64,000 bases of DNA from Cyanidioschyzon merolae (Eukaryota). Shown here one piece after another: positions 1 through 47,900 of this stretch (position 1 is its first letter; every line of letters starts with the position of its first letter). The notes beneath the pieces are model-generated. The model was not told the DNA's origin, did not search any database, and saw nothing but the letters and a program-made list of their open reading frames with translations. The translations under genes were made by a program, and so were the position numbers. The stretch lies in NCBI GenBank assembly GCA_000091205.1, contig AP006501.2. One strand, written 5' to 3'.

Positions 1-1391
1 TCCAAATACTGTTTGAAATGGCCTCCCCGAACGATATAGTCACGGACGTGCGGAAATGCCTCCAATTCGGGTGCAGCTATCATACGTTCGTAGAAGCCGG
101 CGATCCGCGGAACACGCGTACCCACCGGGCGCGTTCGCAATACCAATAAATGCGTACATCCATCCGCAAGAGCGCTTCGAAAGGGGATTGCTTCGAAAAG
201 AATCCCGTCCGCGTAGATATCGTCACCAATGGGAACGAGCGGCCCCGCGATGCCTGGAACCCGCGCGCTCGCCCTGAGGCACTCGCGCAGCTCCGCGTAG
301 GTACGGAACCCGTCGAACGCTACACTACGTGCGTGCGTGAGGCTGCTCGCCACCGGTCGGAGCGGCTGCACCGCATTGTTTTGGGCGAACTTGTTCCAGT
401 CTAATGGTTTGATATGAACCATTACTTCATCGAGAAGAAAGTCGAGATCGAGCACCGGTCGCGTCCGGCTTGACGAACGTAACGGTTGCCAGAGCGCTCG
501 CTTATTGATGAAACGATCGTTCGCAATATCCTCAAAGTAGACAGACGGTCCATAACCTGGTAGCTGCCGCGCAACGACGTAGGCACCGCAGATAGCCCCG
601 GCGGATGAGCCGAAGATCACATCAAAAGCGTCCGCGAACCCGAGGTATCCCAACGCAGCACACATCCCAGCGGCAATACTCCCGCGCATACCACCACCTT
701 CGATGACAAGTCCAATGCGGTAGGGATCGTGGCGTTGTCCGGGTCGCGAGCCGTGTGCTCGTCGTTGGTGCAGGGCCATTAACACCGGATCATCTGCGTA
801 GCTTTGCCAAGGATGATGCGGTTTGTTGGGGGCTTTTTCCCGCTGCAGCAAGAGACGCGGAATGAGACTCAGACTGGCGATGCGTGCTCGTCGCAAGAGC
901 GCTGTACGCAGGGGCGCTCCTGGTGCTGCTGGTGCTGCATCACTTGATGTGGCTGTCTTGTTAGCGCGAGTCGCCGTCTTTGGTGGTGCCGGGTTCGGCT
1001 GCTCCAAAGCCGCTTCCGGTTTCAGCGCGAAAACGAGAGCGCCTCGAGCAAGAAACTGCCGCTGGATAGAGAACCTCGTAAGCAGCCTGGACTGTTCACG
1101 TGCTCGGTTGCAGGCGTTGCTCTTGGGCCAGCAGCTGTGCCTCGTCTTTCCAAAAGCAAGGCTAGTACCCTGGAACTGAAAGCTCATTCGTGACAGCGGC
1201 CGTTGCGTGGCTCCAGTAGACGCTTCCGGTTCGTCCAAAGTGACTCGTGCTGCAAGGATATGAGCGCTCATTCGTGGCGGCAGTGATAGCGTGCTTGCCG
1301 AAGATGCATGTTTCTTGTACAAAACGGCTCGTGCTTCTAGGTGGCGCTCGAGCGACTGCCTGCTGCCGTCAACTGCACGCTCTCTCGCCAT
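1..1391 (-). CDS. patatin-like phospholipase (PNPLA family), 3' end runs off window start
   Basis: Hand translation of the minus strand gives an open frame from the stop at 1503-1505 down to position 1. It contains GGGMRG (oxyanion hole), GSSAG (GxSxG nucleophile) and ADG (catalytic Asp) in patatin order. Candidate start ATGs at 1391, 1271, 1187 or 779. The ORF track omits it because it has no in-window stop. Confidence 0.6.
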   Translation of the reverse strand, partial: MARERAVDGSRQSLERHLEARAVLYKKHASSASTLSLPPRMSAHILAARVTLDEPEASTGATQRPLSRMSFQFQGTSLAFGKTRHSCWPKSNACNRAREQSRLLTRFSIQRQFLARGALVFALKPEAALEQPNPAPPKTATRANKTATSSDAAPAAPGAPLRTALLRRARIASLSLIPRLLLQREKAPNKPHHPWQSYADDPVLMALHQRRAHGSRPGQRHDPYRIGLVIEGGGMRGSIAAGMCAALGYLGFADAFDVIFGSSAGAICGAYVVARQLPGYGPSVYFEDIANDRFINKRALWQPLRSSSRTRPVLDLDFLLDEVMVHIKPLDWNKFAQNNAVQPLRPVASSLTHARSVAFDGFRTYAELRECLRASARVPGIAGPLVPIGDDIYADGILFEAIPFRSALADGCTHLLVLRTRPVGTRVPRIAGFYERMIAAPELEAFPHVRDYIVRGGHFKQYL

Positions 1392-1878
1392 GCGCAGTCC
1401 ATCTACGACCAGTGTCAAACTTGAGCCTGTATGCTTGTTGCTGGATGCTCGCGCTGCTATCCGCACAACGAGCACCCTCCTGCGGATTGATATGTCTTTG
1501 TTCTACAAAGGTTTTCCGGACACTGCCTCACGCTGGACCCGTTTCTGTCGAGAGCCGTGCCTGCTGCTGCCAGCGCACTTGGCTTCGGATCTGGACGTGT
1601 TGGCGCAACCGCATCCGGCACCTGCTCTCCGTTGGCAGGAAACGGCGGGCTCGAATGCTCGCCTCCATCGCTGTGGTTGTGGAATCGACACGTCTCACGG
1701 GATATGCGGATGCGCGAATGCTACCGATATTTAGCCAAAAGAAGTAGATCCTTGGCAGTTGCTCCTGTACCCAACGAGGCCCAGCATGGTCGTCACGTCG
1801 CGCTCGGCGGTTCGATCCGGCGACAAGCCTGGAGCAACGCTTGGCGTGGGCGCTTGTCGCGCCGCTACATCTATGACT

Positions 1879-3247
1879 GATGAAAAGCGAACACTCAAGT
1901 GCGTATTCTGTTCCCGTCTTTGAGGTTTGTACGAAGTTGCTTTTTAGGTGTACAGCCTCGGCGTTCAAAGTGCAGCAACAAAGGGTCACGGATGTATGTA
2001 TCGTTTTCGAGGATGCTTGGTTGTGGTTTCGGAGCGGCGCGTTAGGCGCCTTGCACGCGGAATTCGCGACGTCATCGTAATCAAGACGATTCACAAAGCC
2101 CTGGAACAGCGCTTCGTAAAATAACCGGTCTTGTTATCTAGTTCATACGTACGAGACCGGGCTCTTCGCCCTTGCTTCCGTGTAACACGCCCAATTCACG
2201 CATGCTTCGAGTTTTTGGTCTATCGGTTTCGATGCCATATGTTGATGCAGCAACTCGTGCCGCTGCGCGGACGACGAAAAGCACCCGGCAACATGTCTCG
2301 ACGACCTCTGCACAAGCGCAAGCCGGACACACACTGAACGTGTCACGCCAAACAATCCGTGCTGTTCGAAAGCCAAATCCTCTGATCTGAGTGGCGATCA
2401 ACGGAACGGCATGCCACAGCGGTAGAATGATACCTGGCACGGAACGCGACTGCAGAAGCACCCGTCGCCTATGTTTGCGTAGGAGCGGGTGCTGGACCCG
2501 GACTGGACTGATCACAGCGATCGACTCGGGTGGAGCGTCGACGGATCGACGTCTCTCGAATTGGTTACAAGCCTGGATTCTGCAGTCTGTAGGTGTGTCA
2601 GCATGGACGCCCTCGTACTCCACAACCTGTTTATCGAATGGAAGAGCGTGCGCTTGCGTGTGCAGGTTACGGAGCACTCGCCGAGGCGATCGCCCGGACG
2701 TGGCAAGTGGTGTTACGGTACGGCACCAGGCGCGTAAACGGGGGATAGCACCGAGGGCAGCTTTCTGTACCAGCCACGAGCACGTACCGATCGACGAGGC
2801 AAGCGTTCACGCACCGCACAGAGCAGCCCTCGGAGGACAAGGGCGACAAGCGCGAGAAGAAGGAGGAAGATTCTTGGATGTTCGGTAACGTCCGACCGCA
2901 ATCGCGTGTCACCGTTGCAAAGCGCGCACCGAGCTAGCGTACAACGAAGCTGAACACGGCAAGAGAAGCGTCGATCGCCAACTCCGTCTGGGTGTCAAAT
3001 GCGTCGACAGCAGCCGGAACCCGCGAAACCGGAACCAGAACGCTACCACCAACATCCTTCGAGTGCTCACAAGGGAGCCATTTTGGAATGAAAGACCTGC
3101 GCACCTGACTCTGGAGACAGACGAGCGGTACCGGAAGCAGTCCCCGACAGCCATTGCCGCAGACTGTATCGATGCCATCGGGACGAGACCCAGTCCTGAG
3201 CGGATCCGCTTCTGGAAGTGAATCTGTCCAATTGTGCTCTAAATTGG
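1879..3247. repeat. left arm of 1369-bp inverted repeat flanking PGRL1
   Basis: Track ORFs in 2131-3402(-) recur almost residue-for-residue as ORFs in 4804-5982(+), e.g. 2909..3178(-) vs 4935..5204(+) with one R/P difference. DNA boundaries were located by hand alignment of reverse complements (outer at 1879, inner at 3247). Confidence 0.9.
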
Positions 3248-3682
3248 ATGTAGGGCATTGCCGCAACACGCAACGAATACGCCAGACCCAAGACTAGAAC
3301 GGAATCGGCCCAGCTCGTCGATTCCCATACGCGCAACTGCTTATCGAATGCATATTCTTTACAAGTGTCTCGGCAGACTGCCGCATACACACAGACTTGC
3401 ATGCACTAAGTAGAGCTACGGCTCGCATGCATCTCCTCCGCACAATTCTTTAAATCTACTGGGTAACCGTTCTCTATCGTAAAAATCAAGCACCCATAGA
3501 TTCATACGAGCCGCATCCCTACCTTTTGCGGGTAATGGCGCACTGCACTGCACTCAACTGCACTGCCCGCTCGCGACTCGTAACCGCCAAAGCATGTTGT
3601 GATGCTCCAGGTGCCGAATGCCGTCCAGGTTCATGCAACGGTGCCCGCGTCCAATATCTTGGATGACATCGCCCACAGAGGC

Positions 3683-4705
3683 CTAGTCCGGCGCACTGAG
3701 CTTCTTGCGATCTTGCGGTCTTGCTACGAGAAAGACCTTGCGTTGCGCCACATTGAAGCCGACGATAGCGCCGCAGCGTTTGCAGCGCCGCTCGTCACGC
3801 TTTCTATCCGAAGCGCTCGAGAAAAGACAGGTCACATCGTTTCCGCAATTAGGACAGGGTCCCCGGACTACCTCCGGAGAGCCCAAATCCAAATAGCTCA
3901 GCATTCGTGGCGTCAGGTAGTTGCTGAACCACGCAGTTACGACAGCGATGACCACGAAGAGCACAGACGCTCGAACGGCGACCTGATCATCGAACGTTAG
4001 CTGAATATGGCCGAGACAGATGAGATCAAGGAGCGCAAAACCCAGGATACTCGATAGGCAAAGCAGCACGGCGGGCGCGTAAAGAAGCAGCAGCTTGAAC
4101 CGATCCTCCACTGCGTCTCCGAAAAGCAGATACATAAGTCGTTTGTCCATCGACGAATCAGACTTGAGGATGCTTTGCATGTCGAGGGTGCTGGTTCGAC
4201 TCGCTCCCAGCTTGGCCTTGAGTCCGTCGAGCTCTTCGGGACTTAGACGCAGCTCGTTCAGGAGCCGTCTGTCCATGTCGCGTTGCTGCGCAGCTTGAAT
4301 CCAAACCTTCTCCAAGTCATTTAACCGAAGAGAACTAGAACCTAAATGTTCCAACTCGTCACGGAGAGTCTTGAATTCGCCGTCGGTGAGAACCGGGTTG
4401 CCTTCATAGTATGAGCGCAGCGCTTCAATAAACAGGTTCTCTAGGGCGCCTCTGTACTCACCGTCGTTATTGCCGTCGATGCGCCGAATCCATAAATGGT
4501 CGTCGTTTTCGAACGGTTCTCGTGATATGCTCATATGGTACCGTCGTGGACGCGAGAGCAGTCGCACGCTGGCACCACGGCAAACGGGAAACCGCGCAAT
4601 ACCAACGGAACACGCAAACGGGGCCGCGCACCGTCGAAAAGGCACACCTATGGTGCTTGTCAGCCAACACAGCGGTGCGTTGGAGCGGGACCCGGGCCTC
4701 CGCAT
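3683..4705 (-). CDS. PGRL1: PGR5-like protein 1 (PGRL1), cyclic electron flow around PSI
   Basis: 340 aa ORF. It has two adjacent hydrophobic helices followed by a C-terminal GPCPNCG...CKRCG double-Cys motif, and an N-terminal FIEALRSYYEGNPVLTDGEFKTLRDEL block that aligns to plant/algal PGRL1 (QALQSFYYDGK...NEEFDNLKEEL; LKGPCPNCG...VKCTNCG). N-terminal ~60 aa are R/S-rich, plausibly a transit peptide. Confidence 0.82.
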   Translation of the reverse strand: MRRPGSRSNAPLCWLTSTIGVPFRRCAAPFACSVGIARFPVCRGASVRLLSRPRRYHMSISREPFENDDHLWIRRIDGNNDGEYRGALENLFIEALRSYYEGNPVLTDGEFKTLRDELEHLGSSSLRLNDLEKVWIQAAQQRDMDRRLLNELRLSPEELDGLKAKLGASRTSTLDMQSILKSDSSMDKRLMYLLFGDAVEDRFKLLLLYAPAVLLCLSSILGFALLDLICLGHIQLTFDDQVAVRASVLFVVIAVVTAWFSNYLTPRMLSYLDLGSPEVVRGPCPNCGNDVTCLFSSASDRKRDERRCKRCGAIVGFNVAQRKVFLVARPQDRKKLSAPD

Positions 4706-4865
4706 GGCAGCGAGAACAACAACTGAAACGTTTCTGGCCTAAGTACAGCAAAACGCGGTGCACGTTGCCCAGCTTTGCGGAGAAGATCTCCTCTTGCAAA
4801 TGAATGAAAGGTGGTCGACGACCTGCCTACGGTGGCTGGCTGAGACTCCCGCGCACAGATTATAC

Positions 4866-6234
4866 CCAATTTAGAGCACAATTGGACAGATTCACTTCCA
4901 GAAGCGGATCCGCTCAGGACTGGGTCTCGTCCCGATGGCATCGATACAGTCTGCGGCAATGGCTGTCGGGGACTGCTTCCGGTACCGCTCGTCTGTCTCC
5001 AGAGTCAGGTGCGCTGGTCTTTCATTCCAAAATGGCTCCCTTGTGAGCACTCGAAGGATGTTGGTGGTAGCGTTCTGGTTCCCATTTCGCGGGTTCCGGC
5101 TGCTGTCGACGCATTTGACACCCAGACGGAGTTGGCGATCGACGCTTCTCTTGCCGTGTTCAGCTTCGTTGTACGCTAGCTCGGTGCGCGCTTTGCAACG
5201 GTGACACGCGATTGCGGTCGGACGTTACCGAGTATCCAAGAATCTTCCTCCTTCTTCTCGCGCTTGTCGCCCTTGTCCTCCGAGGGCTGCTCTGTGCGGT
5301 GCGTGAACGCTTGCCTCGTCGATCGGTACGTGCTCGTGGCTGGTACAGAAAGCTGCCCTCGATGCTATCCCCCGTTTACGCGCCTGGTGCCGTACCGTAA
5401 CACCACTTGCCACGTCCGGGCGATCGCCTCGGCGAGTGCTCCGTAACCTGCACACGCAAGCGCACGCTCTTCCATTCGATAAACAGGTTGTGGAGTACGA
5501 GGGCGTCCATGCTGACACAACTACAGACAGCAGAATCCAGGCTTGTAACCAATTCGAGAGACGTCGATCCGTCGACGCTCCACCCGAGTCGATCGCTGTG
5601 ATCAGTCCAGTCCGGGTCCAGCACCCGCTCCTACGCAAACATAGGCGACGGGTGCTTCTGCAGTCGCGTTCCGTGCCAGGTATCATTCTACCGCTGTAGC
5701 ATGCCGTTCCGTTGATCGCCACTCAGATCAGAGGATTTGGCTTTCGAACAGCACGGATTGTTTGGCGTGACACGTTCAGTGTGTGTCCGGCTTGCGCTTG
5801 TGCAGAGGTCGTCGAGACATGTTGCCGGGTGCTTTTCGTCGTCCGCGCAGCGGCACGAGTTGCTGCATCAACATATGGCATCGAAACCGATAGACCAAAA
5901 ACTCGAAGCATGCGTGAATTGGGCGTGTTACACGGAAGCAAGGGCGAAGAGCCCGGTCTCGTACGTATGAACTAGATAACAAGACCGGTTATTTTACGAA
6001 GCGCTGTTCCAGGGCTTTGTGAATCGTCTTGATTACGATGACGTCGCGAATTCCGCGTGCAAGGCGCCTAACGCGCCGCTCCGAAACCACAACCAAGCAT
6101 CCTCGAACACGATACATACATCCGTGACCCTTTGTTGCTGCACTTTGAACGCCGAGGCTGTACACCTAAAAAGCAGCTTCGTACAAACCTCAAAGACGGG
6201 AACAGAATACGCACTTGAGTGTTCGCTTTTCATC
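4866..6234. repeat. right arm of 1369-bp inverted repeat (reverse complement of 1879..3247, ~99% identical)
   Basis: Same as left arm. About 12 single-residue differences across the paired ORF translations. Arms diverge abruptly at 4866 and 6234. Confidence 0.9.
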
Positions 6235-6811
6235 GAACATTCATCTGCGCTCGCTTCGACTCTGGAACGCAGGACAGTCGCGTCAATGAAACAGTACTGT
6301 TCGTGGATTTGTTCAGGATGCGTTCCAAGACATCGAGCGGAGCACTGCAGGAGTTTGACGCGAATCGGCCGGTAGGCTTGGCACCTGCAAGGTCGCAGGA
6401 TAGATCTCGCGTTGGTTCTTAACCAAAATACTGCACTGGGGTCCCGAGTGCGCGGGAGCTTACCTTTGCGGACGACTGTCCCCAACCTGGTCATTGATCG
6501 CATTTGCGTGTCTACGCGGGCGTCTGTTCACATTCATGAGACTCACACCTTCAAATAAAGCAAATCGGAGGCCGAGTAGCCTATACGGTAGCGGCAGGCA
6601 GGCCAAATGCTGATTTGGTGAAGCTCAGCCTCAGAGTGCCCGCGCGACTGAGGCCTGTATTCGCGATCGAGCATGCGACTCCGACATCCTGGCTAGCAAA
6701 TGAGTGTCGGATAATCATGGAGGTCGGTCAAGCGAACACATTGCATTGGGCATCATCGGGGCTTATCAGATCATCATCGGGTCGCTGACGAGGGGCCCAG
6801 TTCGCCCAGCG

Positions 6812-7789
6812 CTAGGGGAGCGATGGCAGCACACCCCAAGAGTCGTCCGCCAACGCGCCGACTCCTGGGCTACGCTCCTCACGAACCGCTCGCAGTGCTG
6901 TGGGCTCTATTGATTCTGTGCACTTTCGTCGCTCGCGAAAGAATCGCCGAAGTAATGATGCGGATTCGTTCGCCAACACCCCGGGAATGATCTCCGAGAA
7001 ACGATGGAACGGATGCGGTGGTGCTACCGTCAATAGTGGAACATACGATTCAATAGCACCTAACCGCAGACCTGGTGCTCCATAGACCAGTCGCGTTACT
7101 CGCGCCAATTGCATGGCGCTGAGACACATAGCGCACGGCTCTAGAGTACAGTAGAGCGTCACATGATACGGAACGGGATGATCTCGACTGCCAGCGCGGT
7201 TCAGTCGCCATGATCGGAGCCGTGCCGATGCCGCCCGTAAACATTCGATCTCAGCGTGTGCTGTGGCATCACAGCACTCCTCAATACGATTCCGACCGCG
7301 TGCCAGAATCACGTCCGGTGCGTCAGTTTCTGGTCCATTTCGCACAACCAAAAGAGCACCAACTGGCACCTCATTGTTCGTGTATGCCTCCTCGGCGAGC
7401 GCAAGAGCCATACGCATGTAGTGCTCGTGCGGTTCAGCTGCAACATTTCTACGAACGGACCCTGCACTCGGCGCGGGTATGCGATACTCGAGGCTGGTGG
7501 GCGTGCTCCGAGCAAGAGCCGCACGCTTGCAGGTAAGCCGGCAGTGCGCAGCCTCCACGCGTTCTCCGACTGCGTGCAGATGACCCTCTGTCTCTCGCGG
7601 CAAGTTGAGACCATCTTTTCGCTCGTTAAATTGAGGATCAGAAATGCATAAGCTAGCGCTGGGGCGGCGATTGATCGACGCCCTCTTTGGAGTCTGCCTT
7701 GTGCTGCTGCTGCTGCTCGTGCGCCGTCTACAAGCAAAGCTCAGCGTGCTCACGATAGAGAACGAGCACCTGTGCACTTTCGGTAACAT
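6812..7789 (-). CDS. cytidine/deoxycytidylate deaminase-family protein, tRNA adenosine deaminase (TadA/ADAT2)-like
   Basis: HAEIECL...PCAMCLSA zinc-binding deaminase motifs (H-A-E and PC-x-x-C). Long S/T/R-rich N-terminal extension suggests organellar targeting. The true start may be an internal Met. Confidence 0.72.
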   Translation of the reverse strand: MLPKVHRCSFSIVSTLSFACRRRTSSSSSTRQTPKRASINRRPSASLCISDPQFNERKDGLNLPRETEGHLHAVGERVEAAHCRLTCKRAALARSTPTSLEYRIPAPSAGSVRRNVAAEPHEHYMRMALALAEEAYTNNEVPVGALLVVRNGPETDAPDVILARGRNRIEECCDATAHAEIECLRAASARLRSWRLNRAGSRDHPVPYHVTLYCTLEPCAMCLSAMQLARVTRLVYGAPGLRLGAIESYVPLLTVAPPHPFHRFSEIIPGVLANESASLLRRFFRERRKCTESIEPTALRAVREERSPGVGALADDSWGVLPSLP

Positions 7790-9303
7790 GACACACCTTT
7801 TAGAAATCTTAGAACAATTATCGTCACTTTTCCGCGCCTAGCACACTAGCGGCTACACGGGACGTTCGCATAGACGATCGTCTTGAACGGCCACGGTCGG
7901 TCAGCGGTAAGCGCTCAGGTTGCCGCATGCGATCGTAGGCGGGCTAGGCGAGGCGCCACGGTAGCTGCCTCACGAGTCTGGGTGCGGCGTACGCTTCTTG
8001 CGTTTGTGAACCGTGAATCAACGAGACTGGTGGTGGAGCTCCATGAGCATGAGTACATCATGCGGATACGATGATGTAGACTTTAAGAGCGCGCTCCACT
8101 GGTTGGCAGGAGAGCCCCGTAAAAGAAGTACCGGGAGAGAATGGGCGGGTACGTTTATCAGCTCCGAGCGGTATCCAGGGAAAGGTCATCGAAGCGCGGT
8201 AACGATGGAGTAACGCGACTGTCTCGATTACGGGTGTCGCTACCTGTCCTTGAGAGTCTCCGTGAATCCGTAATGTTTGTACAATAGCGTGGTAGGTCCG
8301 CAGTCCATGGAAAGCTCCTGTTCATCGCGAGTAGTATCTCTTTGTTTTGCAGATGCACAGACAATCGGTTGGATGCTTCGGCTTTAGTTGCGGGAGATCT
8401 GCACCCAGGAGAGTCATTTGCGCCAGCCATGCTCCATTCGCCCACGTTCTCGTGCGGTGCGAGTGTGGTACAACCGTTGCATGAGAGCTCGCAGCGTGCC
8501 CGCAGCGGGTGCGCATTGCGAGACCTTGATCCCGCTTCCCGTCTTGGTCTTGTGAAGCGGTTCCTGTAACAGAACGTGTCATGCTTTTGCTTTTCGTAAA
8601 AGGTGATCAACAGATCGCCATCTCCCATTGACCGCAAACACGTTCCAAGCATTCCGGTTTTTGGCGCAGCATGCACATACCCCTTTCTTTCCGTATTGCT
8701 TTGCCATCTGCGTACCGCAGTACGACTGGCCTAAAGTACGAATGCAGTCCTGCTTACACTGTTCAGAAAAGAATACATATCCGACATCCAATTCGTCTTC
8801 GATCTATGCGGTGTATCGCAGAGCGATGTCGATCCCTGCTATGCCTCGCGAACTAGCATTCGATTCTACACCGCGAAATTGGAATGAAATTGAGTTGAAA
8901 TTCTAAGGATGTTCACCGTGGCGGCCGCGCGGCGCCCAAAAATCTCCGGGCACAACGTCGCGTGGAGCGTCCGCCGCCGATAGCGCCACCGCCGCTGCCA
9001 CGTGTGCGGATTCGCTGCTTCTAGGGTGCACGCCTCTGCAACGGAACCTGTTCCACTGGATGCAGTCGCGGCAGCTGCAACTGCTACGTGGACGCGTTTA
9101 GGAGCGTTCTATGTGTTTCATGGTTGATTCCGTCATGATCGCCCACTGAGCATATTGGGACGAGAACGTTTGCCCCTCTCTCGTATTCTCAGTTCTGCTG
9201 GGCACAGGCAGTACTGCTTGAGCGTGTGCGGGACAGGCCCGAGCTGGGCGCTTCGAGGCGTTGAGGAGGAGCTCGGTGCCAGCGAGCGCTTCACGAGGGC
9301 GTC

Positions 9304-12300
9304 TTGAAAAGTTTTCCTGGTCTGGTGCGAGAATCTTCATTTATGGTGGCGGTAGGCAAGTTTCTCGTGAGGAAAATCCGTAGTTTTTTTGGCGCGGTTG
9401 ACCGCGCGCTCTTCTTCATTACGTGTTGGATCTCCGTGAACCCGGTACGCGAAACGAGCCTCTCTGAACAAGACGAGCTTGTCGATGGAGGAAACCTATT
9501 CCTGACTCGGCTGGAGAGCGGCCTAGAACCGAAGCTACGTCATTCTTCCGTACAGAAGATACGTGGTGATGAGGCGCTAGCTGGAGGCATCGCACCTGGG
9601 CACGATGTGTCAACCAAAGGGACATGCTCGGGGCCACATGACCTGCCCCAAAAGCCAAGTGATGCCGCGCGTTTTCCAACGTTTCGTGCTGCGCAGAAAG
9701 CGACGAAGGATGGACGGGGGCCGTCTCTCGACAAGCACCCGGTTGTGGACGGACGTTCCTCGCCAGCTGCGCACGGCGCGCGACCAAAGCATGCGCGTAC
9801 CCCCACGAGAAAAGTGTGGCGCCAACATCGCTTTCGACGTGTCGACGCTGATGCTGTCGACGATGCTTATCCCAGAAATAAAGCACCGGCTGCACCGAGC
9901 GAGACATTTTCCCGTACGGACACCAAGCAATGGATCCGAGAAATCCGGGATATCTACGCGAGTCGTATTTCGTTTCCGCGGCACAAGTACGAGGTATTCC
10001 GCCCTTCGCAGCTGAATTTTGTAGTCATCACGCTTTGGGGGCTCATCTTTGTAGCGGTAGCGCTCGTGATTGCTGTCATTATTTACACGCGCGCGGTGAA
10101 CTCCGATTACTTTCTTTATTCAACAACGTTTCTCTATGTGGCAACAATTGGCAGCATGACCGAATCTGCAATATCCCTTCTGCTTTACCTGTTCTTCTAC
10201 GCGCGAGTCGCCCTGGTGCCGGCACGGGAACGCACACGCATCCAGTACGTCATCGCTGCGATGACGCTGGTGCTCTTCTGGCAAACTGAGCCGTTGACTG
10301 CTCTGCTCCGACTCGCTGATAAGGGTCGACTGACAACCCGTGTGCCGCGAGTAGTTGTCGCGTTCCAGTTAGTAGGCAACTCTGCGTTTTACATCGGTAC
10401 CATTGGTTTCATGCTTGTTGTCTGCCACCTTTACCGAATTCGCGAAACGCTGCCTCTTAACTGGCTGATCTTCTTGGGTCCCAAACTTGTTCTCGTTTGC
10501 ACACTCCTGGCGCTCAGCTTTGTACTGTTTTTCGTTGGTCGTGTGATGCCGTCACGCTTGCCGTTGCTGTCGCTCATCGCTCTAGCTCGTGCGGGACGCG
10601 CAACAGGTCTCTGGGCTCGGAAAGCACTCAGCATCGTTGCGGTGCTTACGTTGTGTGAGCTCTACGCGCTCGTTGCGGTCCTGTACGAGATCCGCCGCAC
10701 CTGGCGCTGTTTGAACACAGAGCCGTACACCACGTCGCGGGCGCGACAACTCGGATTCCGGCTCTTTCTCTACACCACCGGCTTGGCGTATTTTGTTTTA
10801 TGGATACTCTTAATCCTTATTGTTTCCATTTGTCCTATGAGTTTCAGTATCGCTTACTACTACATCATGCTCTCATATGATCGGCTTCCATCCTTCTACA
10901 CCGACAACAGTCGAGTAGAACGCTTTCTTGCCTCTGTTTACTTCAATCCGCTCTTTTCGTCCTCTCTGTACTTTATTCTGAATTCCATCACCATCGCGAT
11001 AATGATTTGCAATGTACTGATTTACTTGCCTCCGGAGACACCCGCACTGTTCGCGAAAATCGTCTGTTGCCTCGCTACGAGCCGCAAAGACGTTCTGTCT
11101 AATTATCTGTGTTGTCGCGATGAGCCGCGACCGTTCTTCCGCTGGGGTCCACGCCAAACCTCCCACGGTACCGTAGATGCACCGCCGTCGATCGCTTCGT
11201 TGCCAACTGGACAAGGCGTGACGCGCTGCGACGCATACCCGGTCTCGTGTCCGATCGAGGCTCAAGTACAGGCACCGAACATCATGGCACCGGTGGGTTC
11301 TTCAAAGCCCGTTGCCGGAACTTCATTGGATACGCTGACGACGAATGATGCCACCATGGCGAGCACCAACGAAAACCAGTTGCATCGGGCTCAAGCAGGA
11401 CTCTGGAAGCCCAACGGGGATACGCCCTCGAGAGACTCTGGTACTGCGGGCGCATTAGCAACCCGTATACCCGTGTTGCGACGCTACGTGTTCTCTGTCG
11501 AGACCATGGTGGAGCAGTTCAACCTATCGTGGCTCGCCTACGTTCTAGATCCTGCAAGGTGCTCTGGGCGTTTCATCCAGTCGCAACGTTTCTGGCGCGA
11601 CTCGCTTGAACTCTTCTACGACGCCGCCACCGATACGCTGGGATACATCCTGGAGGCCGACGATCGCATCGTTCTTTCGTTCCGCGGGACTCGTTCCCGC
11701 CGCAACCTCCAAACAGATATGCAGACTCGTCTGGTGCCTCTGCGCTTCCCGAACGGGGATATGGATCACGCTCTCTATCAGTACCTGCTCCGTTGCGGAA
11801 AGTACTACAATCGAAAAGATGCCCGCTGGAGTCCAGTAATGCACATCTCCGATACGGCACTGCGACTAGAGCGGTACCTTCGATTTCGCGCTCGCTCCGA
11901 CCGACCGCGGGTGCACGAGGGTTTCCTTGCCAGCTACCTCACGTTGTGTGAAGCGCTTGAGCGAGCGCTGACCCAGCGCTATCAAAGGAATCCCCGGCCG
12001 GTGCTCATCTCTGGTCACTCGTTGGGCGGGGCACTCGCGAACCTCGCTGCGCTGCATCTCGCCATTCACCTGCAGCTTGGTCAAGACTCGTTGATGTTGA
12101 CGACCTTTGGCTCACCACGAGTAGGCGACCTCCATTTTGCGCGACTGCTGGACTATTTGGTGCCCATTCATTTCCGTGTGACGAATGCTGCCGATGTTGT
12201 GGCACGGCTGCCGTTCACGGGCCTCGGTGGATGGTTCGCCTGCGGGGGCGCAGCGTACGCCCACGCTGGAGTCCAGGTGCTCTTGAACAAGCATGGACTG

Positions 12301-12696: not shown

Positions 12697-13859
12697 TCAC
12701 CGGGAATGCAAGCATGATCCCGAGTGCGCCTGGCTTCTTGTGGACCGTACGCTTGAACCCGGATATGCCGCCCACGATGCCTGTTGTCAGTTCGCACCTG
12801 GAGGTTGGCCTCTGCCGACATTCGGCTTGACACGCAAGCACAAGAACGAAAGGCATGCGCGCTGGTGTGAACAGTGTTACTGGCGTCCTTGACGACAACA
12901 ATATTCGCTGTGCTCACCACGGGCCGTCACCGGCGCTCGCGCTCACACAGCGAACATCCTTGAGCGTGCAACGCAGCGTTGCTGTACACACACCGGCGTG
13001 CTGCGAGCAGGCGGCTGGAGACAAGTCCGCGCGTCAACGATTTCAGCAGGTCATACCTTCTAAAGCACTTGTTTGCACGCGTTTCCCAAGTGACGCATCA
13101 TGCCCAGAGACTCCAGTTGTATCGGTGTTCCTTCGACAACGAGGATTGCGTTCAGATGTTAGCGAAGCGCATAGGGTCTGCTTCGGATGCGCAGCGCCGC
13201 ATTCCCCCGTTTGGGGATCGCTCGAGTCCAGCGGCCTTTTCTCACATGGGACAACGCGTACTCCCCGAGTTCACGAGGCCACGCTCCACCCTAATCGCTC
13301 AGCGTCGCAGTCGAGTCCCCGTTCGAGCCGGTATCCTGTATGCTTTCGCCTGTGAACGGCGACTACAGGCTGCGACTTTGATGCCGTCCGCACCAGCCAG
13401 CACGAGCAGCGACCACAAATCACTTCGCCCGACGCTGACTTGCGCCTAGCCACGAACGATATCGACGAGGCACGTGTCAGTACTGGACGGAAACCCGCAG
13501 ATGACGCCTCCTGTGAGGTATGCGCCGCTTGATGACAGTGATCGCGTGGAGATGTCCTCAACGACGCTGCAACGATCGCGGCAATGCGTCGCTGCCCATT
13601 CAGCGCACACACCGCGTGATCAACGTAAAACGGCTACGCATTCGGACGATGCCTGTACATGCCAACGAACGAGACTGGCATCCTAAACGATATGTCTGGG
13701 GGAGCTTGCGCTCGTGCAGGCGTCTGACGCCGTGCTCAGCGTCTGCCGGGTGCGCCTATAACTCCATACGGCATGCGTCGCTTTCAGTGCACAAGACCGC
13801 GTCATTGTAACAACAAGCTCCAGTGCGAGTGCAGAATACATGCAGGTCCATGGATGCTC

Positions 13860-17866: not shown

Positions 17867-18430
17867 AGGAGGAGCTGCAGCTGCGACTGTGTCTCTCAGC
17901 ATCTAGTTCTGTCTCATAGTATTTCACATTGTCTCATCGTACACCATACGCGCATGCGCGATTGCTATCGATTGCAAGCAAAGCGGCGAGTACGCCTCGC
18001 GCTCACGAAAGCGCTGCAATCGATGGAGCTCGGAACATGATTCTCGTTGGGAATGTTGACCGATAAATCGTTTGCACGGGCGCCGCAACATCGATATATG
18101 ATAAAAAGGTGGCGAGTTGACGCAACGCATCTGCCGATTCTTGCTTATCCGTGTGCCGATGAATACAGCGGACGGCTCGACGAGCCCCTGACACCAGAAG
18201 TCTATCGCAGACTAAAGGCGTCCGCCGCACCCAGCTCTGCTGAACGGAAACTCATGAACAGCTTGACTGTCTCTGCAACCAACGCGAAAGCCGACTCTGC
18301 CGAGTCAACTGCTCTGGCAGGTCATTGAAGAATAATACCCGCATGCAGCTGTGCGCTCACAAGAATCGTAGCGCCCAACGTTGAAACCATCCAACGCACG
18401 CGACGCTGTACGGGATATTGGCGTAGCGCG

Positions 18431-18670
18431 CGCATCCCAAGTGACATGTGCACTGGCGAAACGCGTGCACTAGCCATGTGTCCCTTTGGACAGCGCGTTA
18501 CGTCGCAGGCTGATGGCGATCTGCAAGGCACAGACGCCACATGACACCAGCGCATCCCAAGTGACATGTGCACTGGCGAAACGCGTGCACTAGCCATGTG
18601 TCCCTTTGGACAGCGCGTTACGTCGCAGGTTGATGACGATCTGCAAGGCACAGACGCCACCTGACACCAG
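18431..18670. repeat. tandem duplication, 2 x 120 bp
   Basis: cgcatcccaagtgacatgtgcactggcgaaacgcgtgcactagccatgtgtccctttggacagcgcgttacgtcgcagg... is repeated head-to-tail with 3-4 mismatches. It generates the duplicated peptide in track ORF 18322..18660(-). Confidence 0.9.
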
Positions 18671-28481: not shown

Positions 28482-28622
28482 GTGTGCCATAGGAGTGTGG
28501 TATAGGCGTGTGTGCCACAGGAGTGTGGTATAGGCTTGTGCTATAGGAGTGTGTGCTATAAGGGTGTGCTATAGGCTTGTGCTATAGGCTTGTGCTATAG
28601 GCTTGTGCTATAGGGCGTGTGC
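28482..28622. repeat. minisatellite, ~11 copies of a 12-13 nt unit gtgtgctatagg(c/a)
   Basis: Direct read ...ggcttgtgctataggcttgtgctataggcttgtgctatagg... with degenerate copies upstream. Confidence 0.88.
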
Positions 28623-30499
28623 AATGAAGGTAGAGCACGGAGCAGGCGTTTGGTTTCTGTATGTCGACGTGTTTTCCGGGCTTCTTGTACCTGTCCAGTC
28701 CTGGGAATGGAAATGCAATCGTAAGTTCATTCGAATTGATTCATAGGTCGAGGATGCTTGGTGGTGTTTTTGGAGCGAGTCCTTGGACTGCATGCAGCTG
28801 GAATTCGTTGCGTCACCAGGATCAGGATGATTCGCAATAGAAGAGACAAAGAGCTAGGAAACTGACCGATATCATGATCCAGTGTTTGCGAAGACGTCTC
28901 GGCTCTTCCTGTTTCCTTACGTAGCGTATGTTGAAAAATCACGCATTGTGCACGTTTTTGATCGGTCTGTTTCAAGGCTAGTCATTGCCACAGCACTGCG
29001 CGTCGCTGGGCTGACGAGGAAACGAAAACTCGACTTGGTGCACTGGCGAGTGCTTCACAAGCTCATGGCAAAATTTCACTGAACGTGTCATGTCGAATAA
29101 TTATCGGATTCGTTCGAAGGACAAAAGCTCATTTTTTTGTGACTATTGACGAAACTGGATTCGACATCCGTACGCTACCGCTTACGAGATATGCAGGCAG
29201 TGGTTCTCGTCTCTTCTAATTGCATGGAAATTGGTCTTGGATTAGCACGTGGGTCATTGCGTCGATTGGCTCGAGTGGGGCGTGCGTTACCGCGTTCCAC
29301 GATGAGCAGGTAGACGGATCGAACTTGCTAGACTTGATCTCCAGACCTGACTTTTCTTCCCACACTAGTTTCAACACAGACAGCACCGCTTTCCACGAAT
29401 TCTAACTCATATGGGACATTGTGCGCTCGCATATCCAGCTTACAAAGTACTCAGCATCGGATTACCCAAAAGGAGCTCGTCATTGGAGGGCACGGCACCG
29501 GGTACGGAAACGGAGGCGGACATCGAATGGAGTCCTCTGCACCAGACATAAGCATGCACAGAACGATGAAGCATCCCGTCGCGTGTCAACGAGCAGACCT
29601 CACCGGAGCAGGTGCCGTGGACATAATGGAATACCTGACCAAGGTCGAGTGTCGACGGTTCTCCAGCGCACCAAAGTTGTATACAAAGATGATGATGAGA
29701 CTAGCAAGCGGTGCGTAGCTTGCAGCTTTTGCGAGTGCATGAAATGCATGCACAACAGTCCGAAGGACGGGAAAAGAGGACAAAAATACCGAAACGAGTT
29801 ACTAACAACCAACGTGCTACCAGTTTCTTTCCTCCTCTTCGGTGAGCGTTACAAGAGGAAAAAGTTTTCCCAATTCTCAAAAGGTTACCATCTAGGCGGA
29901 AGGTCTCGCGAGCCGGACGAGCCTGCCGGGCATACGCTCTGTGCGCCTCTGCAGCGACCGATGCTGTAGTGAGATCGCCGCTGCCCTTCGGCAACGCAAC
30001 TCAGTCTGGGACTCGCAGCGAGTATGCTGCATTTCAGCGTCGCGCAGGTCGCAGAGGACCCCTAGCATATCGCATCGCGCTGTCGCAGGCAATACGTCTT
30101 TCTGCGCATCTTGCAGGCTCCCTGAATGACAATAAATCCCGATTCCATGTCGTGCAGAACACGCTTCGAGCCGGCGCCCTCAGCGGTATGACAACGCCGT
30201 TCTGTCTCCGTGATGCATCGGCATCAGCGGTGTAAGCGTTAAGGCGCGTGCTCGAAGTGGCACTCGGCGCACGATAGAACGTACGAAACGAACAATATAC
30301 CCAAAACGAAGTACAAGTAATGGAACTAGAAGGTAGGTGCTTCATCATGGGCGATTTCCCGAAAGCCGATACCTATCCCGCAATCTGGGATCCATGGTCC
30401 AGTTTAGACGTTTTGTCATCGGAAAACGAATCGACGCTTAGCGAGCGCACCTAGGAGATCTGGCAGGCATGAGACACGACGCGTACGGTGCCGTTGTTG

Positions 30500-32958: not shown

Positions 32959-33052
32959 GCGGTGGTATCACGTGCACAAAGCCACACGCTATTGCCTTCT
33001 CGTGCGTGCTGCGTTTCAATATTTATAGCCGAGTTGGCCCGCTTCGATTCCG

Positions 33053-36529: not shown

Positions 36530-37417
36530 CTCCACGGTAAATGAGAGATCTCAATGGCTGGTATACACACTGGACAACGAGAACGGTCACCGTTCGGGTC
36601 GGGTCCGACCCTATACCGAAGTCCTGTCGCACGATACGCTGGACAGGTGCACTGCTGATGCGGACGAAGGCACCCCAGTCGAGTGCTGCACGTCGCGACG
36701 GTATGGCAAGCATCACCAACTTGCCGTCCAGTGGGTGCTCGGATTTCCGCTAAGCGAATCATTTAGATTTGTCGAGCGGCTGCGTCGCAGCCAGCGAAGG
36801 CAGGTCGAGTAGCAAGCGAATATATCGCGTGGCTCGCTACCCGGATGCCCGGACCCCAGTGCAGGTATCCTGTACGAGCGCGATCTGCTGTCGCAGACGC
36901 TCGCTACGCATGGGCGTTAGGTTCAGGCAGAAAAGCGACAGGCCAGTTCTCGATACAGCGACACGGCACAAGCAACGGAACGGAACACAAGCGTACTTAC
37001 CGAATGACGAGGCCCGAAGCCATGAGTCGCCGCTCTTGGTTCGGAGCACGCACGCACGCACACCATCACCCGCAGCAGTCTGACAACGATGCGTACGGCG
37101 TTGCAGTGTCCTAGTCGGGGCTCAAGGACACCCGCGGATGACCACTGGGAAGTGCAGGCGTCGTTTACGCGGAGCTGCTCGCGGACTGGCGAGCGGTTTG
37201 CCGGGCTCGTCGCGACACTGCGCGTGCCAACATGGACTGGGCGCCCGTCCGACTTGCGCTGAGCCTCGAGCCTGGTACAGCGCCGATGCGAACACGTGGA
37301 ACACAGAGGCCCACTCCTCTGGCAATGCTCGTCAATAGCATCCGCATGTAGACGGGTCAGCTTTGATGACGTTTTCTGAAGGCTGCCTTCCACAGAAACA
37401 CTGCCCGCTTCGATGTA

Positions 37418-37593
37418 CTACCCTGAACCAGATCGCAGTTTCCCGTGCCAGTATCGAATGCAAGCACTGTACCAGACAGTGCACCGACTGCAATTGACTC
37501 CAGACTATCCTGAACCAGATCGCCGTTTCCCGTGCCAGTATCGGAGGCAATCACTGTACCAGAAAGTGCACCGACTGCAATTGGATGTGTCTG
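37418..37593. repeat. tandem duplication, 2 x ~87 bp, upstream of the radical-SAM gene
   Basis: ctaccctgaaccagatcgcagtttcccgtgccagtatcgaatgcaagcactgtaccagacagtgcaccgactgcaattg... is repeated head-to-tail at ~85% identity. It produces the duplicated peptide in track ORF 37413..37661. Confidence 0.85.
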
Positions 37594-44949: not shown

Positions 44950-47900
44950 TTTTCAAGGTCAGTGCCGATCCAGTGATATCCTCGAAAGCGAGCTTGGTCA
45001 GATGATCTGCGCTATGGACACCGACAGGGAAAAATAGTAATGCGTTTGCAGCGCTAAACTATTGACGTAGAGCAGATCGTCTCAGAAAGAACGCCTCCTG
45101 GGCACTCGGTTTCACGTTCTATGAGGTGCAGCGCTATGCGCACGCTTAAGTTATGGTGACTTGAGCGTCCAGGTTCACACTGATCTGCCAAGAACAGTTT
45201 CACAGAACAATACGTGCAACCGCAGTTCTTTGGGGTAAAGAAAGCGTTGCCCCTCAAAAGCACCTATACGTACCGTCTCGGAACGGTGGACGCTATCCCG
45301 CCTGCCGATAATAACCACACACTCAGGAAAACACTGGCTCGCGGAGAAGATCCGACACACACACACACACCCGCTGCCCAAAGAAAAGCGCGTATCGTCT
45401 GTTGAACAAGTCGCGCACGTACAACCCGCGTGCACGCATTCGATACGCGAAGCGCTGCATGGATCTTCGCCCTGCCAGTCGGGGGTGTATGTTGGATAAT
45501 CTTCGAGCTTGATCAGGGATACCTGTGCTAGGCTCTGGTGCTTTTTTCCAGCGTATGCGGCTGGCGATACACTGCATGCGTTTACGAGTCGAGCCTCCAC
45601 AGCGCCGGCGCATGCGCGTCCACGGAGGTGCATGCGTGTCGGGGTTGCATGTGCGTTACACGTACACCCTTGCGCGACGACGTCCATGGGCGTCTACGGT
45701 AGGCGTGCATTCAGGGAGCTTGCGTATTTATCTGCATATCAAAGTTAAACTGGAACAGGTGGACTTGCGAACTCGAGGGTACACGCTGACGTTTGCATCA
45801 CGTCGTACTGTCCTTCAAAACAGAGTGTGCGGGATTTCGTTGGGACTGCTCCTGTTTCCTGTCGCTTACATCCAGCTGTGAACAGGCCGGATTTTTTTTC
45901 TAGAAGCGATCGATGCGATATCCAAAGTCCATGGCCGTGGCCATTTCGCATCTCAACCGCAGCAATGGGAGCCAATCGGGAGGAATCCGCTTTAGAGGTA
46001 TGGTGCAGGTGCGGAACTCCTTTTCGCTGATGACCGAAAAAGCGAGGAGGAATTGTCTTCGGGACGGCATCCATTATTTGACATGACAAGTTCAGTGAAG
46101 TTTCGGCATGATCTTGTGGAGAAACCGGCCAGGGGTGACGTCGAGTTTTTCGTTTTCATTTTCAATCCAGTTGCGCTGGCTGCTGCGTCCGCGAGTTGCC
46201 TCGCAACAGCAGGATCGGAAACTTGTACAGTGCGGCATTCGAATATGTGACACGTAAAGCAGCGGAGAAGCGTAGAGCATTGCACCTATGCATTGAATAA
46301 AGACATCAATGAAATTACGAGACTTTGTCGGAAGGTGTCGCAAATGACCCTGATTCCGGTGACGTAACGGATTCCAGCGGTATGGCGAGGAAGCGGCTAC
46401 CCCGGAGAAAAAAACGACCGAGAATCCCAAGACTTTGCGTACATCCATAAGCCGTTATTGTTGCGCTTCAAATGACGAGACCGAACGTCTGAGAAAAATT
46501 CGAAAAATCGAAATACAGAAACAGAGCGAGCAGTTCAGTGTTCCATTTCCATCCGCCGCAAGTGGAGATGAACAAATGCGCTCATTTGCGGGTGATCACG
46601 GTGCGAGACATCCAGCCGGTTTGGTGTAGGTTTCGCGAAACCCGCACGAACGAAAGCAAGCTACTGTGATTAGCTGGAGCGTTCGAATTCCTCACTGAGT
46701 AGCGATTTGCCGTGTTTCTCGACAGCATTTCATTCCACGATGGCCGTCGAATCGAGCACGTCCGATAAGACCTTCTCCGCTGCTCGATTCTCAGTGCACC
46801 ATTCTTCCAAGAATAGAACCCTTCTCTTTCCGGAATCCGTCTCCACGCAGGTCACTAGTTTCTGTCAGCGCGGCGTGCCCACTGCTGTGACACGGGGAAC
46901 AACGCTCCATGCTGCGGCTCCATGTTTTTGACATTCCCCGTACCGATTCTTTCGACCATGCCGAGCACGCAGATTTTCAACGATGGACTCAGCGTCGGAT
47001 TCGAGAACTATAAGGAATATCCAGTATGGCGCAGTAAAGTAATGAGCTTTCGATGAAATGGTAGGTAAGCGTCCTCCTGCTTCGGGGACAAGGTCTAGAA
47101 TTCATCTTTGGTGCTGCAGCTTCCGCAAAAAGCGCGCATGCCATGATTGTCCAGGGACTGTAGACCTGCCAATTCTTACGGTCTTACAAGTCAATTTTGT
47201 TTCCGTACTGCCAGATATCATCGAATGCTTTTTCGCAGTGTATAGCAGGAAATCGAATTCGCGATTCAACGCACCGTATACATCGGAGAAGAATTGCCTC
47301 CAGGATATATATTCTTTACTGAACAGAGCGAGCAGGACTACGCCCCTTCTTCAGGTCAGTCATACTATAGTTCTCTCATGATTGAAGAGCACTGAAAGAT
47401 ACAAATAGATGCACTTTGCCCCAAAAACCGATATTCTGACAGCGTGCCTGCTGTCAGTATGCAATATACGACACCGTGATCACTTTCTGGGGAACGCAAA
47501 AGCGAAGATCGTGGTCACCACGGGCGTCTGCACAGTTCAATAGCTTGTTCGTGTAGTCCTGGAAACACTGAAATACAGTTGCAAAAGAGTCCAGGTTCAC
47601 GCATGGCCATCTTCCACCGAAATTGCAGCAACTAGCGCGTTCCCCGGAACTCACTGCCGAATCTCGTGCTACCGCAGACATTCCATCGAGAAGCGGTCTG
47701 GACTGAGGCTTCAGTGTGGACCCTGTTCGGGAGACGACGGCACGCCTGGGCTGGCGGCGTCTGTTGCTTTGCACGACAGGCGAAGAGGTATCGTTCTATT
47801 CGGGAGACGGTCTCATCAGGCGGGGGGCGGACCACGCCAAAACACACGCTGGATAGCGGCAACTGAGGCGTGCTCGGCTCGCAACCAGCGTACGCCCACA

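Follow-up and report, generated by a model that had tools for sequence, protein, structure and literature searches.

Inverted Repeat Arms Bracket a PGRL1 Segment That Is Reversed Relative to Sister Species in the Nuclear Genome of Cyanidioschyzon merolae

On chromosome 19 of Cyanidioschyzon merolae 10D, two long and nearly identical inverted repeat arms enclose a PGRL1 gene, and the segment between them is inverted relative to two sister species in which the order of the genes is the same but the duplication is absent. Arms and spacer together form a 4.4-kb palindrome-like structure around a gene of cyclic electron flow, in a model alga valued for its exceptionally simple, repeat-poor, and fully finished genome. 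We interpret the structure as a lineage-specific inverted segmental duplication of the nuclear genome, the arms of which would be homogenised by gene conversion and would allow the enclosed segment to flip, probably as a neutral by-product of repeat dynamics; to this reading as a whole we assign a probability of about 0.7. The term window denotes the entire stretch of 64,000 nucleotides that was analysed.

Results

Structure of the Inverted Repeat

The initial annotation had described two 1369-bp arms with about 12 substitutions between them. An ungapped base-by-base comparison reproduced the coordinates (Table 1) and set the count at 11 substitutions and 0 indels, the former located at positions 1937, 2005, 2415, 2584, 2593, 2751, 2880, 2881, 3029, 3030, and 3098 of the left arm. 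A repeat search returned a single inverted pair of 1374 nt (1879–3252 and 4861–6234; 99% complementary, separation of 1608 nt), and similarity dropped sharply beyond each of the four boundaries (1878/1879, 3247/3248, 4865/4866, and 6234/6235). A repeat of 1.37 kb with 99.2% identity cannot have arisen by chance in 64 kb. Microhomology at the junctions amounted to one shared base only (G at 1879). In this assembly, the left arm connects the left flank with the 3' side of PGRL1; the right arm lies upstream of PGRL1, with 160 nt (4706–4865) between its inner end and the start codon, and its outer end is directed towards the 3' end of the deaminase gene.

Table 1. Coordinates of the repeat arms, the enclosed and flanking genes, and related repeat copies in the window.
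Feature	Position	Strand	Basis and remarks
Left-flank patatin-like phospholipase gene, incomplete at window start	1..1466	-	Open frame; PF01734 on orthologous ORFs; collinear with sister species
Left arm	1879..3247	+	1,369 nt; repeat search, boundaries, family homology from 1877-1879
Unique spacer, 1,618 nt, the invertible segment	3248..4865	.	Homologous segment has the other orientation in two sister species
PGRL1 homologue, 340 aa, intronless	3683..4705	-	ORF; protein match
Right arm	4866..6234	-	11 substitutions relative to the reverse-complemented left arm
Right-flank cytidine/deoxycytidylate-type deaminase gene	6812..7789	-	ORF; collinear with sister species
Copy B	28622..29770	+	~58% identical to arm positions 1879-3078
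Copy C	45625..46555	-	nhmmer match reaches 45625

The arms are non-coding, in agreement with the earlier statement that they carry no recognisable coding sequence. Pfam searches of the longest arm ORFs and an Rfam search of positions 1–9000 at E ≤ 1 each gave 0 matches, no tRNA or rRNA genes were found in 1–9000, and the substitutions among the arm and copies B and C showed no 3-base periodicity. Moreover, the left arm contains a 179-aa ORF that a substitution at position 5698 interrupts in the right arm, where two 87-aa ORFs are left.

As had been claimed, PGRL1 is the only gene of the spacer, being the sole long ORF that lies wholly inside it, and its assignment was borne out as well: the encoded protein is identical to C. 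merolae 10D BAM82852.1 / XP_005538888.1, and BLASTP aligned its residues 86–326 with residues 93–318 of Arabidopsis PGRL1A (29% identity, E 2e-22), with the C-terminal CPNCG...C..CG motif aligned between the two. By core homology and by this CxxC...CxxC motif, the 340-aa protein is predicted to belong to the PGRL1 family, for which Pfam has no family model; a Pfam search gave sub-threshold, unrelated matches only. Two hydrophobic stretches, at approximately residues 203–228 and 244–262, were made out by eye. The flanking genes are nuclear and reside on 10D chromosome 19, which, along with the lack of rRNA and tRNA genes in 1–9000, confirms the proposed nuclear rather than plastid context. A plastid-type inverted repeat is ruled out by the nuclear flanking genes and the lack of rRNA genes.

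The Locus in Independent Assemblies

Over 30 independent contigs of environmental origin, which belong to close relatives and are 98–99% identical to the window, have the same four junctions, and contig L007 spans arm, spacer, and arm. Five contigs comprised the spacer only, two of them exactly (L017 and L018, corresponding to 3248–4865) and three with 30–51 nt of arm, as expected because short-read assemblers break at a collapsed repeat. That one arm of the reference was mis-joined or artificially duplicated might be argued on the grounds that mis-assembly classically arises at inverted repeats and that short-read contigs do end at the arm boundaries. However, the left and right flank–arm junctions and both arm–spacer junctions were seen in many independent assemblies, both arms are present within L007, and the reference has kept 11 differences between its arms, which shows that they were not copied from one consensus. 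Since the junctions recur in independent environmental contigs, we regard the inverted repeat as real and give next to no credence to an assembly artefact.

Inversion of the PGRL1 Segment Relative to Sister Species

In two sister species (L011/L012 and L013), the order patatin–PGRL1–deaminase is kept and the flanks are collinear with the window, but PGRL1 is reversed relative to 10D. The deaminase gene lies 0.1–0.7 kb from the PGRL1 stop codon and is convergent with PGRL1, the gap between them measuring 738 nt in L011/L012 and 87 nt in L013. Sensitive blastn, tblastx, and nhmmer with the family HMM detected no arm homology in these three loci. A comparison of the syntenic locus, already named in the initial annotation, thus found the same gene neighbours and no arms in either sister species. 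The PGRL1 segment of 10D is accordingly inverted relative to both, the change in orientation maps to the arms, and the breakpoints lie inside the repeats, with collinear flanks on either side. Because PGRL1 sits between the same neighbours in the arm-free species, it was inverted in place and not captured by a transposon.

The inversion of the spacer relative to the ancestral gene order had gone unmentioned in the initial annotation, which had instead considered a foldback transposon or palindromic amplification intermediate that captured PGRL1. Such a unit, or a composite transposon, would be mobile or amplifiable as a whole, and the arms do have the appearance of long, family-derived terminal inverted repeats, the element terminus pointing outward on either side. 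This contrasts with the conserved position of PGRL1 in arm-free species and with the finding that the gene has one genomic context only in each strain. A target-site duplication at 1878/6235, proposed earlier as a check, is missing: the flanks read ...CTATGACT / ... / GAACATTC... with no direct repeat, and the junctions are identical in all strains. When direct and inverted target-site duplications were sought for the whole unit and for each arm, the best match comprised 4 of 6 bases (ATGTTC versus ATGTAG), which is not significant. Furthermore, one scan of the metagenome collection with an arm 29-mer retrieved only left- and right-flank junction contigs of the PGRL1 locus and no near-identical arm copies elsewhere. 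Capture of PGRL1 by a mobile or amplifying unit therefore appears extremely improbable to us.

Concerted Evolution of the Arms

Arms within one strain are closer to each other than equivalent arms are between strains. The two 10D arms differ at 11 sites from each other and at 17–27 sites from every environmental arm, whichever flank adjoins; likewise, 5 sites separate the arm next to the left flank in L020 from the arm next to the right flank in L025, as against 12–27 sites between these two and other arms. Overall, distances amount to 5–11 sites within and 12–27 sites between strains, regardless of the flank. An exception is L007, the arms of which differ by 3.9% over 583 nt, and homogenisation is hence not uniform across strains. 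The clustering of arms by strain, not by position, indicates concerted evolution rather than recent origin. Of the two explanations offered previously for the near-identity of the arms, gene conversion is thus favoured by their grouping, whereas recent origin is disfavoured because the repeat, with identical boundaries, is common to strains that differ by 1–2%. The arm SNP haplotypes are mosaic, and one strain type has arms that are identical over about 1 kb, which supports recombination without proving the existence of two isomers.

At 1,369 nt and 11 substitutions, the arms are large and alike enough for homologous recombination, and both orientations of the spacer were encountered. Among 18 environmental contigs, 15 showed the ancestral orientation (L001–3, 5, 6, 8, and L020–L028) and 3 that of 10D, with the left flank joined to the PGRL1 3' side (L004, L009, and L019), although short reads cannot fully phase the arms and the linkage of flank and spacer across a repeat of >1 kb derives here from short-read assemblies. 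In the strain type represented by L020/L025, the arms are identical over ~1,060 nt, so that the orientation chosen by the assembler is unreliable; in L009, the right-flank marker 1887C stands beside the left flank, which suggests that this contig may represent a chimeric assembly path. The 15:3 ratio could also result from deterministic tie-breaking by the assembler. The 10D orientation was taken from the published Sanger assembly and should be phaseable, with 11 arm differences spaced at most 410 nt apart.

These orientation data bear on the possibility of a single inversion-with-duplication event without continued flipping. Replicative or aberrant transposition, or staggered breaks plus end joining, would have inverted PGRL1 while making the second arm; all C. 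merolae strains would then have the orientation of 10D, and the contigs with ancestral orientation would be assembler artefacts. The arrangement left flank–arm–PGRL1 3'...5'–arm'–right flank is exactly the primary product that one such rearrangement should yield, the arms end on their outer side at the terminus of a repeat family (see below), neither arm is flanked by a direct target-site duplication, and arms identical over >1 kb are not phaseable by short reads. On the other hand, the 15 of 18 contigs with the other orientation were obtained from numerous samples and are named in two or more styles (among them k141_, MEGAHIT-style), the arm differences in several strains are spaced at most 366 nt apart and can be bridged by paired reads, and concerted evolution implies that the arms do recombine. 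In addition, the inverted target duplication that would be expected was not seen, 4 of 6 bases being the best match. On balance, we consider a single event without later flipping unlikely, while taking it seriously as an alternative to continued flipping.

A Dispersed Repeat Family

The arms are members of an old, dispersed, non-coding repeat family, with two further copies in the window (B and C) that are ~58–60% identical. In the case of copy C, positions 46553–46010 matched arm positions 1879–2478 at ~60% identity in BLAST and in a 200-nt window test. Each arm has its outer end at the terminus of the family: alignments by nhmmer begin at 1877, 6235, 28622, and 46555, and homology z-scores rise at the boundary from <2.5 to 16–31. 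The terminus of copy B adjoins a 13-nt tandem repeat, and the longest ORF of this copy (182 aa) retrieved its own near-identical orthologue only. Copies B and C are located in gene-free gaps of 3.2–3.4 kb; with three family loci in 64 kb (the arms and copies B and C), the family is dispersed, multi-copy, and intergenic. The derivation of the arms from a dispersed repeat family that ends at their outer end is a further aspect that the initial annotation had missed.

A 'novel interspersed repetitive element' of C. merolae, the WSV repeat, has been described with 253 copies of 3.2 kb mean length that make up ~5% of the genome, and is defined by a truncated ORF with weak similarity to the WSSV protein WSV486 (Nozaki et al. 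2007, PMC1955436; Mikulski et al. 2017, PMC5405695). Our family resembles it in being dispersed, non-coding, and multi-copy, in the 3.2–3.4 kb gaps that harbour copies B and C, and in a density of three loci per 64 kb that is of the right order. The arms differ in measuring only 1.37 kb.

Discussion

Efficient homologous recombination has been reported in C. merolae (PMC11376382). We propose that recombination between the arms leads to their homogenisation by gene conversion, and that resolution as a crossover would flip the 1.6-kb PGRL1 segment, such that the locus would exist as two isomers. The second arm may have originated when a duplication was coupled to an inversion, for instance through staggered breaks or through intramolecular transposition of the element, be it replicative or aberrant; the 10D arrangement would then follow directly, and the coincidence of arm end and element terminus would be accounted for. 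As another possibility, the inverted duplication may first have formed in place, with a crossover later. As both arms have the same sequence, the 1.4 kb adjoining PGRL1 to the left and right do not differ between the isomers, and the inversion is for this reason probably without effect on the gene. The structure as such would thus probably be a neutral by-product of repeat dynamics.

Two functional readings were weighed against neutrality. In the first, read-through transcription over both arms would generate a double-stranded stem of 1.37 kb, PGRL1 forming the loop; in the second, the segment would act as an invertible switch: depending on its orientation, transcripts reading through from the deaminase gene would be sense or antisense to PGRL1, which would tune cyclic electron flow. 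A long, perfect stem could form from the sequence; in the 10D isomer, the minus strand carries the deaminase, PGRL1, and patatin-like genes alike, so that read-through would be sense and include both arms; and interspersed repeats of C. merolae were reported to be transcribed (PMC1955436). It has to be set against this that C. merolae reportedly lacks Argonaute and Dicer (PMC11376382), that the inversion does not alter the promoter and terminator context of PGRL1, the adjoining 1.4 kb being identical on both sides, and that the sister species run PGRL1 without the repeat. Taken together, we judge a regulatory hairpin or switch to be very unlikely. A function through hairpin-derived siRNAs is unlikely because Dicer and Argonaute are reported to be lacking, and the hairpin is possible as a matter of sequence only. 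That recombination drives a switch of orientation here, in the nucleus of a eukaryote, seems a still more distant prospect; if true, a flip would set deaminase read-through or arm-initiated transcription sense or antisense through PGRL1, and subpopulations would differ in their capacity for cyclic electron flow, in a nuclear analogue of bacterial invertible promoters.

Returning to recombining, neutral arms, the closest parallels are inversion polymorphisms caused by non-allelic homologous recombination (NAHR) and the flip-flop isomers of plastid inverted repeats or the yeast 2-micron plasmid. The PGRL1 locus shares with these systems two long, highly similar inverted copies, breakpoints inside the repeats, and concerted evolution, probably by gene conversion; to judge from assemblies and the outgroup, an intervening segment that occurs in both orientations may be a further common trait. 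It differs in its very small dimensions, with 1.4-kb arms and a 1.6-kb single-gene segment, in its setting in a haploid and extremely repeat-poor nuclear genome, and, compared with the 2-micron plasmid, in having no dedicated recombinase such as FLP. Inversions flanked by transposable elements (bacterial IS/Tn3-type elements, Ac/Ds, and P elements; replicative or alternative transposition) are similar in that inverted element copies bracket the inverted segment, with the element terminus at the outer boundary and no direct target-site duplication on either copy. In contrast to these, neither a transposase nor terminal inverted repeats nor a convincing inverted target duplication was found for the arms, and the family copies are old and ~60% identical; transposition is nonetheless a candidate origin. 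Long inverted arms with a unique loop are found as well in foldback transposons (FB-type) and in loci for hairpin RNA (inverted-repeat siRNA), but the PGRL1 locus lacks a target-site duplication, mobility, and other copies, its loop gene is at the ancestral position, and the organism is reported to be devoid of RNAi machinery.

In the literature on PGRL1 in C. merolae, we found no paper describing the repeat that flanks the gene. The repeat pair seems to be neither a new mechanism nor a regulatory device; the inversion is a real structural variant, most likely a neutral one. It has practical consequences all the same: homology arms designed for PGRL1 knock-out or tagging would land in duplicated sequence, PCR and short-read mapping over the locus would be ambiguous, and the reference orientation may fail in other strains. 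Beyond this, the locus offers a dated example of an old interspersed repeat seeding structural variation, and, in an alga that is haploid, a natural reporter by which gene conversion and mitotic homologous recombination can be followed without markers.

Results

Coordinates and properties of the features discussed
Feature	Position	Strand	Properties
Left arm of inverted repeat	1879-3247		
Right arm of inverted repeat	4866-6234		
Spacer	3248-4865		
PGRL1 homologue	3683-4705	minus	340 aa; sole long ORF of the spacer
Copy B	28622-~29770	+	~58% identical to arm positions 1879-3078
Copy C	46555-45625	-	~60% identical to arm positions 1879-2478
13-nt tandem repeat	28482-28614		GTGTGCTATAGG-like, ~10 units; directly adjoins copy B terminus
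Frame-broken ORF string	30753-32899	+	ends '...KKRMEFVNRDFNAAINIRRCAV'; shares the gene-free gap of copy B, ~1 kb past its mapped end
Second, truncated ORF copy	61367-61708	-	
DNA repeat shared by the two ORF copies	32454-32964 / 61812-61301		79% identical
Second dispersed repeat module	8583-8900 / 47184-47503	inverted	66% identical over 321 nt; between deaminase and lipase genes / 630 nt outside copy C terminus
Tandem duplication	18430-18669		120 nt, perfect register, 98% identical; outside every listed ORF of at least 180 aa
80-nt repeat	37417-37583		87-nt spacing, 93% identical; just upstream of long ORF starting 37728

The inverted repeat that the initial annotation described around PGRL1 is real. 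A repeat search returned one inverted pair (1879-3252 / 4861-6234; 1374 nt, 99% complementary, gap 1608 nt), the sole one reported whether the first 12 kb or the whole window was searched, and base-by-base comparison of the arms counted 11 substitutions and no indels, with a sharp loss of similarity at all four boundaries. Metagenome and SRA assemblies yielded more than 30 contigs from close relatives (98-99% identity to the window), all with identical sequence at the four junctions; one of them, L007, holds arm, spacer and arm together, and an assembly artefact is thereby rejected. Two contigs (L017, L018) comprise exactly the spacer and three (L014-L016) the spacer plus 30-51 nt of arm, while several flank contigs end 116-170 nt into an arm; spacer-only contigs are the pattern expected of a short-read assembler collapsing the arms. 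The locus is thus genuine and well defined as a structural feature of the reference genome, and our literature search found no paper describing it.

The spacer ORF is identical to BAM82852.1 / XP_005538888.1 of Cyanidioschyzon merolae strain 10D, encoded on chromosome 19 of the finished genome (PMC1955436), in agreement with the nuclear location assumed initially. Pfam held no model for it. Aligned with Arabidopsis PGRL1A, the whole conserved core was covered, including the C-terminal CPNCG...C..CG motif (29% identity, E 2e-22); we regard the PGRL1 assignment as a strong lead, short of a database identification. Gene calls on environmental contigs begin at Met58 (283 aa; residues 1-57 correspond to 4535-4705), and NCBI models in related species span 332-350 aa. 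Rich in Arg, Ser and Ala, the N-terminal extension is probably a transit peptide; if so, the start codon stands just 160 nt (4706-4865) from the nearest arm, and part of the promoter probably lies inside the repeat. The stop codon lies 435 nt (3248-3682) from the other.

The arms are non-coding, as had been proposed: Pfam, Rfam and tRNA searches gave no match, substitutions among arm, copy B and copy C lacked 3-base periodicity, and the longest left-arm ORF (179 aa) is split by a stop codon in the right arm. Nor are the arms unique: copies B and C are old members of the repeat family to which they belong. Alignments of all four copies start within 2 nt (1877, 6235, 28622, 46555; nhmmer), and the z-score of similarity, computed in 200-nt windows, rises from <2.5 to 16-31 precisely at 1879, identifying the outer end of each arm as the family terminus; homology to the family was undetectable in the innermost ~170 nt of the arm. 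The gaps that hold copies B and C are free of genes and 3.2-3.4 kb long, which recalls the 'novel interspersed repetitive element' of C. merolae (253 copies, mean size 3.2 kb; PMC1955436; PMC5405695), although that element is defined by a WSV486-like ORF; the longest ORF of copy B had no homologues. Within the metagenome collection, an arm-specific 29-mer occurred solely in contigs with a left-flank (patatin-like gene side) or right-flank (deaminase gene side) junction; the near-identical version is therefore a two-copy, locus-specific duplication and no active high-copy subfamily.

Copy C and both arms lack the 13-nt tandem tail of copy B. The same composite element may also include the second dispersed module. 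The KKRMEFVNRDFNAAINIRRCAV motif of the frame-broken ORF string is similar to the RuvC-III end of proteins of the TnpB/Fanzor type; the sole database hint for the two ORF copies was PF07282 (Cas12f1-like TNB, E=0.24). Eight 'bacterial-like transposase' elements have been reported in C. merolae, and the two ORF copies may belong to them.

Three PGRL1 orthologue loci were compared from two sister species, one Cyanidioschyzon-like (L011, L012; 87% protein identity) and one Cyanidium caldarium-like (L013; 72%). All three loci share the order DEAD/SPRY helicase - patatin-like - PGRL1 - deaminase - lipase - ankyrin - bromodomain, and align with the window with flanks in the same orientation and PGRL1 reversed. 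PGRL1 and the deaminase gene are convergent there (gap 738 nt in L011, 87 nt in L013), and blastn (word size 7), tblastx and the family HMM found no arm homologue at these loci. This conserved order, with PGRL1 reversed and the arms missing, places PGRL1 at its ancestral position and shows its segment to be inverted in 10D, the orientation change mapping to the arms. PGRL1 was hence not captured by a mobile element; the foldback transposon and the amplification intermediate suggested initially are both contradicted by this synteny, by the absence of a target-site duplication and by the single-locus distribution of the arm. L011 carries its own short inverted repeats (7725-7957 / 9385-9617 and 9449-9607 / 13354-13512; 79-82% identical, unrelated to the arms), one pair enclosing PGRL1 and the deaminase gene; intergenic repeats near PGRL1 are therefore not unique to C. 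merolae.

Eighteen environmental contigs join a flank to one spacer end across a full arm. Three (L004, L009, L019) match 10D, in which the left flank leads through an arm to the PGRL1 3' end; L009 appears to be a chimera or a recombinant. Fifteen (L001-3, 5, 6, 8, L020-L028) have the ancestral orientation, in which the left flank leads through an arm to the PGRL1 5' end, or the PGRL1 3' end through an arm to the deaminase. Some strains have arm differences at most 366 nt apart, which paired reads could bridge; arms of the L020/L025 type are identical over ~1,060 nt, so that the assembler-chosen orientation carries no evidential weight there. From these contigs an orientation polymorphism, with both isomers present, seems likely. 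That 10D is inverted with respect to the sister species is independent of them and rests on the Sanger reference, whose arms, with 11 differences spaced at most 410 nt apart, should be phaseable at the read length we assumed.

The 10D arms differ mutually at 11 positions and at 17-27 from every environmental arm, irrespective of the attached flank. Likewise, the L020 left-flank and L025 right-flank arms, which appear to stem from the same strain type, show 5 differences (all in the outer 300 nt), versus 12-27 from others, and the 2751 C/T and 3029-30 CC/TG polymorphisms sit on either arm, depending on strain. This pattern is one of concerted evolution, with sequence exchanged between arms. The repeat has identical boundaries in strains 1-2% divergent from 10D and hence predates their split; of the two explanations initially offered for the near-identity, gene conversion is supported and recent origin disfavoured. 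The L007 arms differ at 23 of 583 positions (arm coordinates 2665-3247; 3.9% versus 0.8% in 10D), so homogenisation is not uniform and its extent differs from lineage to lineage, or this contig is a mixture of strains.

Discussion

The locus comprises two inverted copies of a repeat-derived segment and, between them, a gene whose orientation is the reverse of the ancestral one; it belongs to the well-known class of repeat-mediated inversions with concerted evolution. Homologous recombination, noted to be efficient in C. merolae (PMC11376382), would yield gene conversion between the arms, and its resolution as a crossover would invert the 1.6-kb segment. Since the arms have the same sequence, PGRL1 keeps identical DNA for 1.4 kb up- and downstream in either isomer, and the flip should be functionally silent.

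For its origin, inversion-coupled duplication is one economical model, whether through staggered breaks or through transposition of the element, intramolecular replicative or aberrant: the 10D arrangement is precisely its primary product, and it accounts for an arm ending at the element terminus and for neither arm having a direct target-site duplication, although the inverted target duplication that it predicts found an unconvincing best match of 4/6 bases. In-place inverted duplication followed by a crossover is the alternative. The hairpin from read-through RNA around PGRL1, as conceived initially, would be permitted by the sequence, which could fold into a 1.37-kb stem; since the deaminase, PGRL1 and patatin-like genes all lie on the minus strand in 10D, RNA of this kind would carry PGRL1 in the sense direction. 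However, Dicer and Argonaute are reported absent from C. merolae (PMC11376382), and the sister species manage without the repeat. The repeat-mediated inversion is relevant chiefly wherever PGRL1 is to be manipulated genetically in this model alga, for which the locus is also a natural reporter of mitotic recombination.
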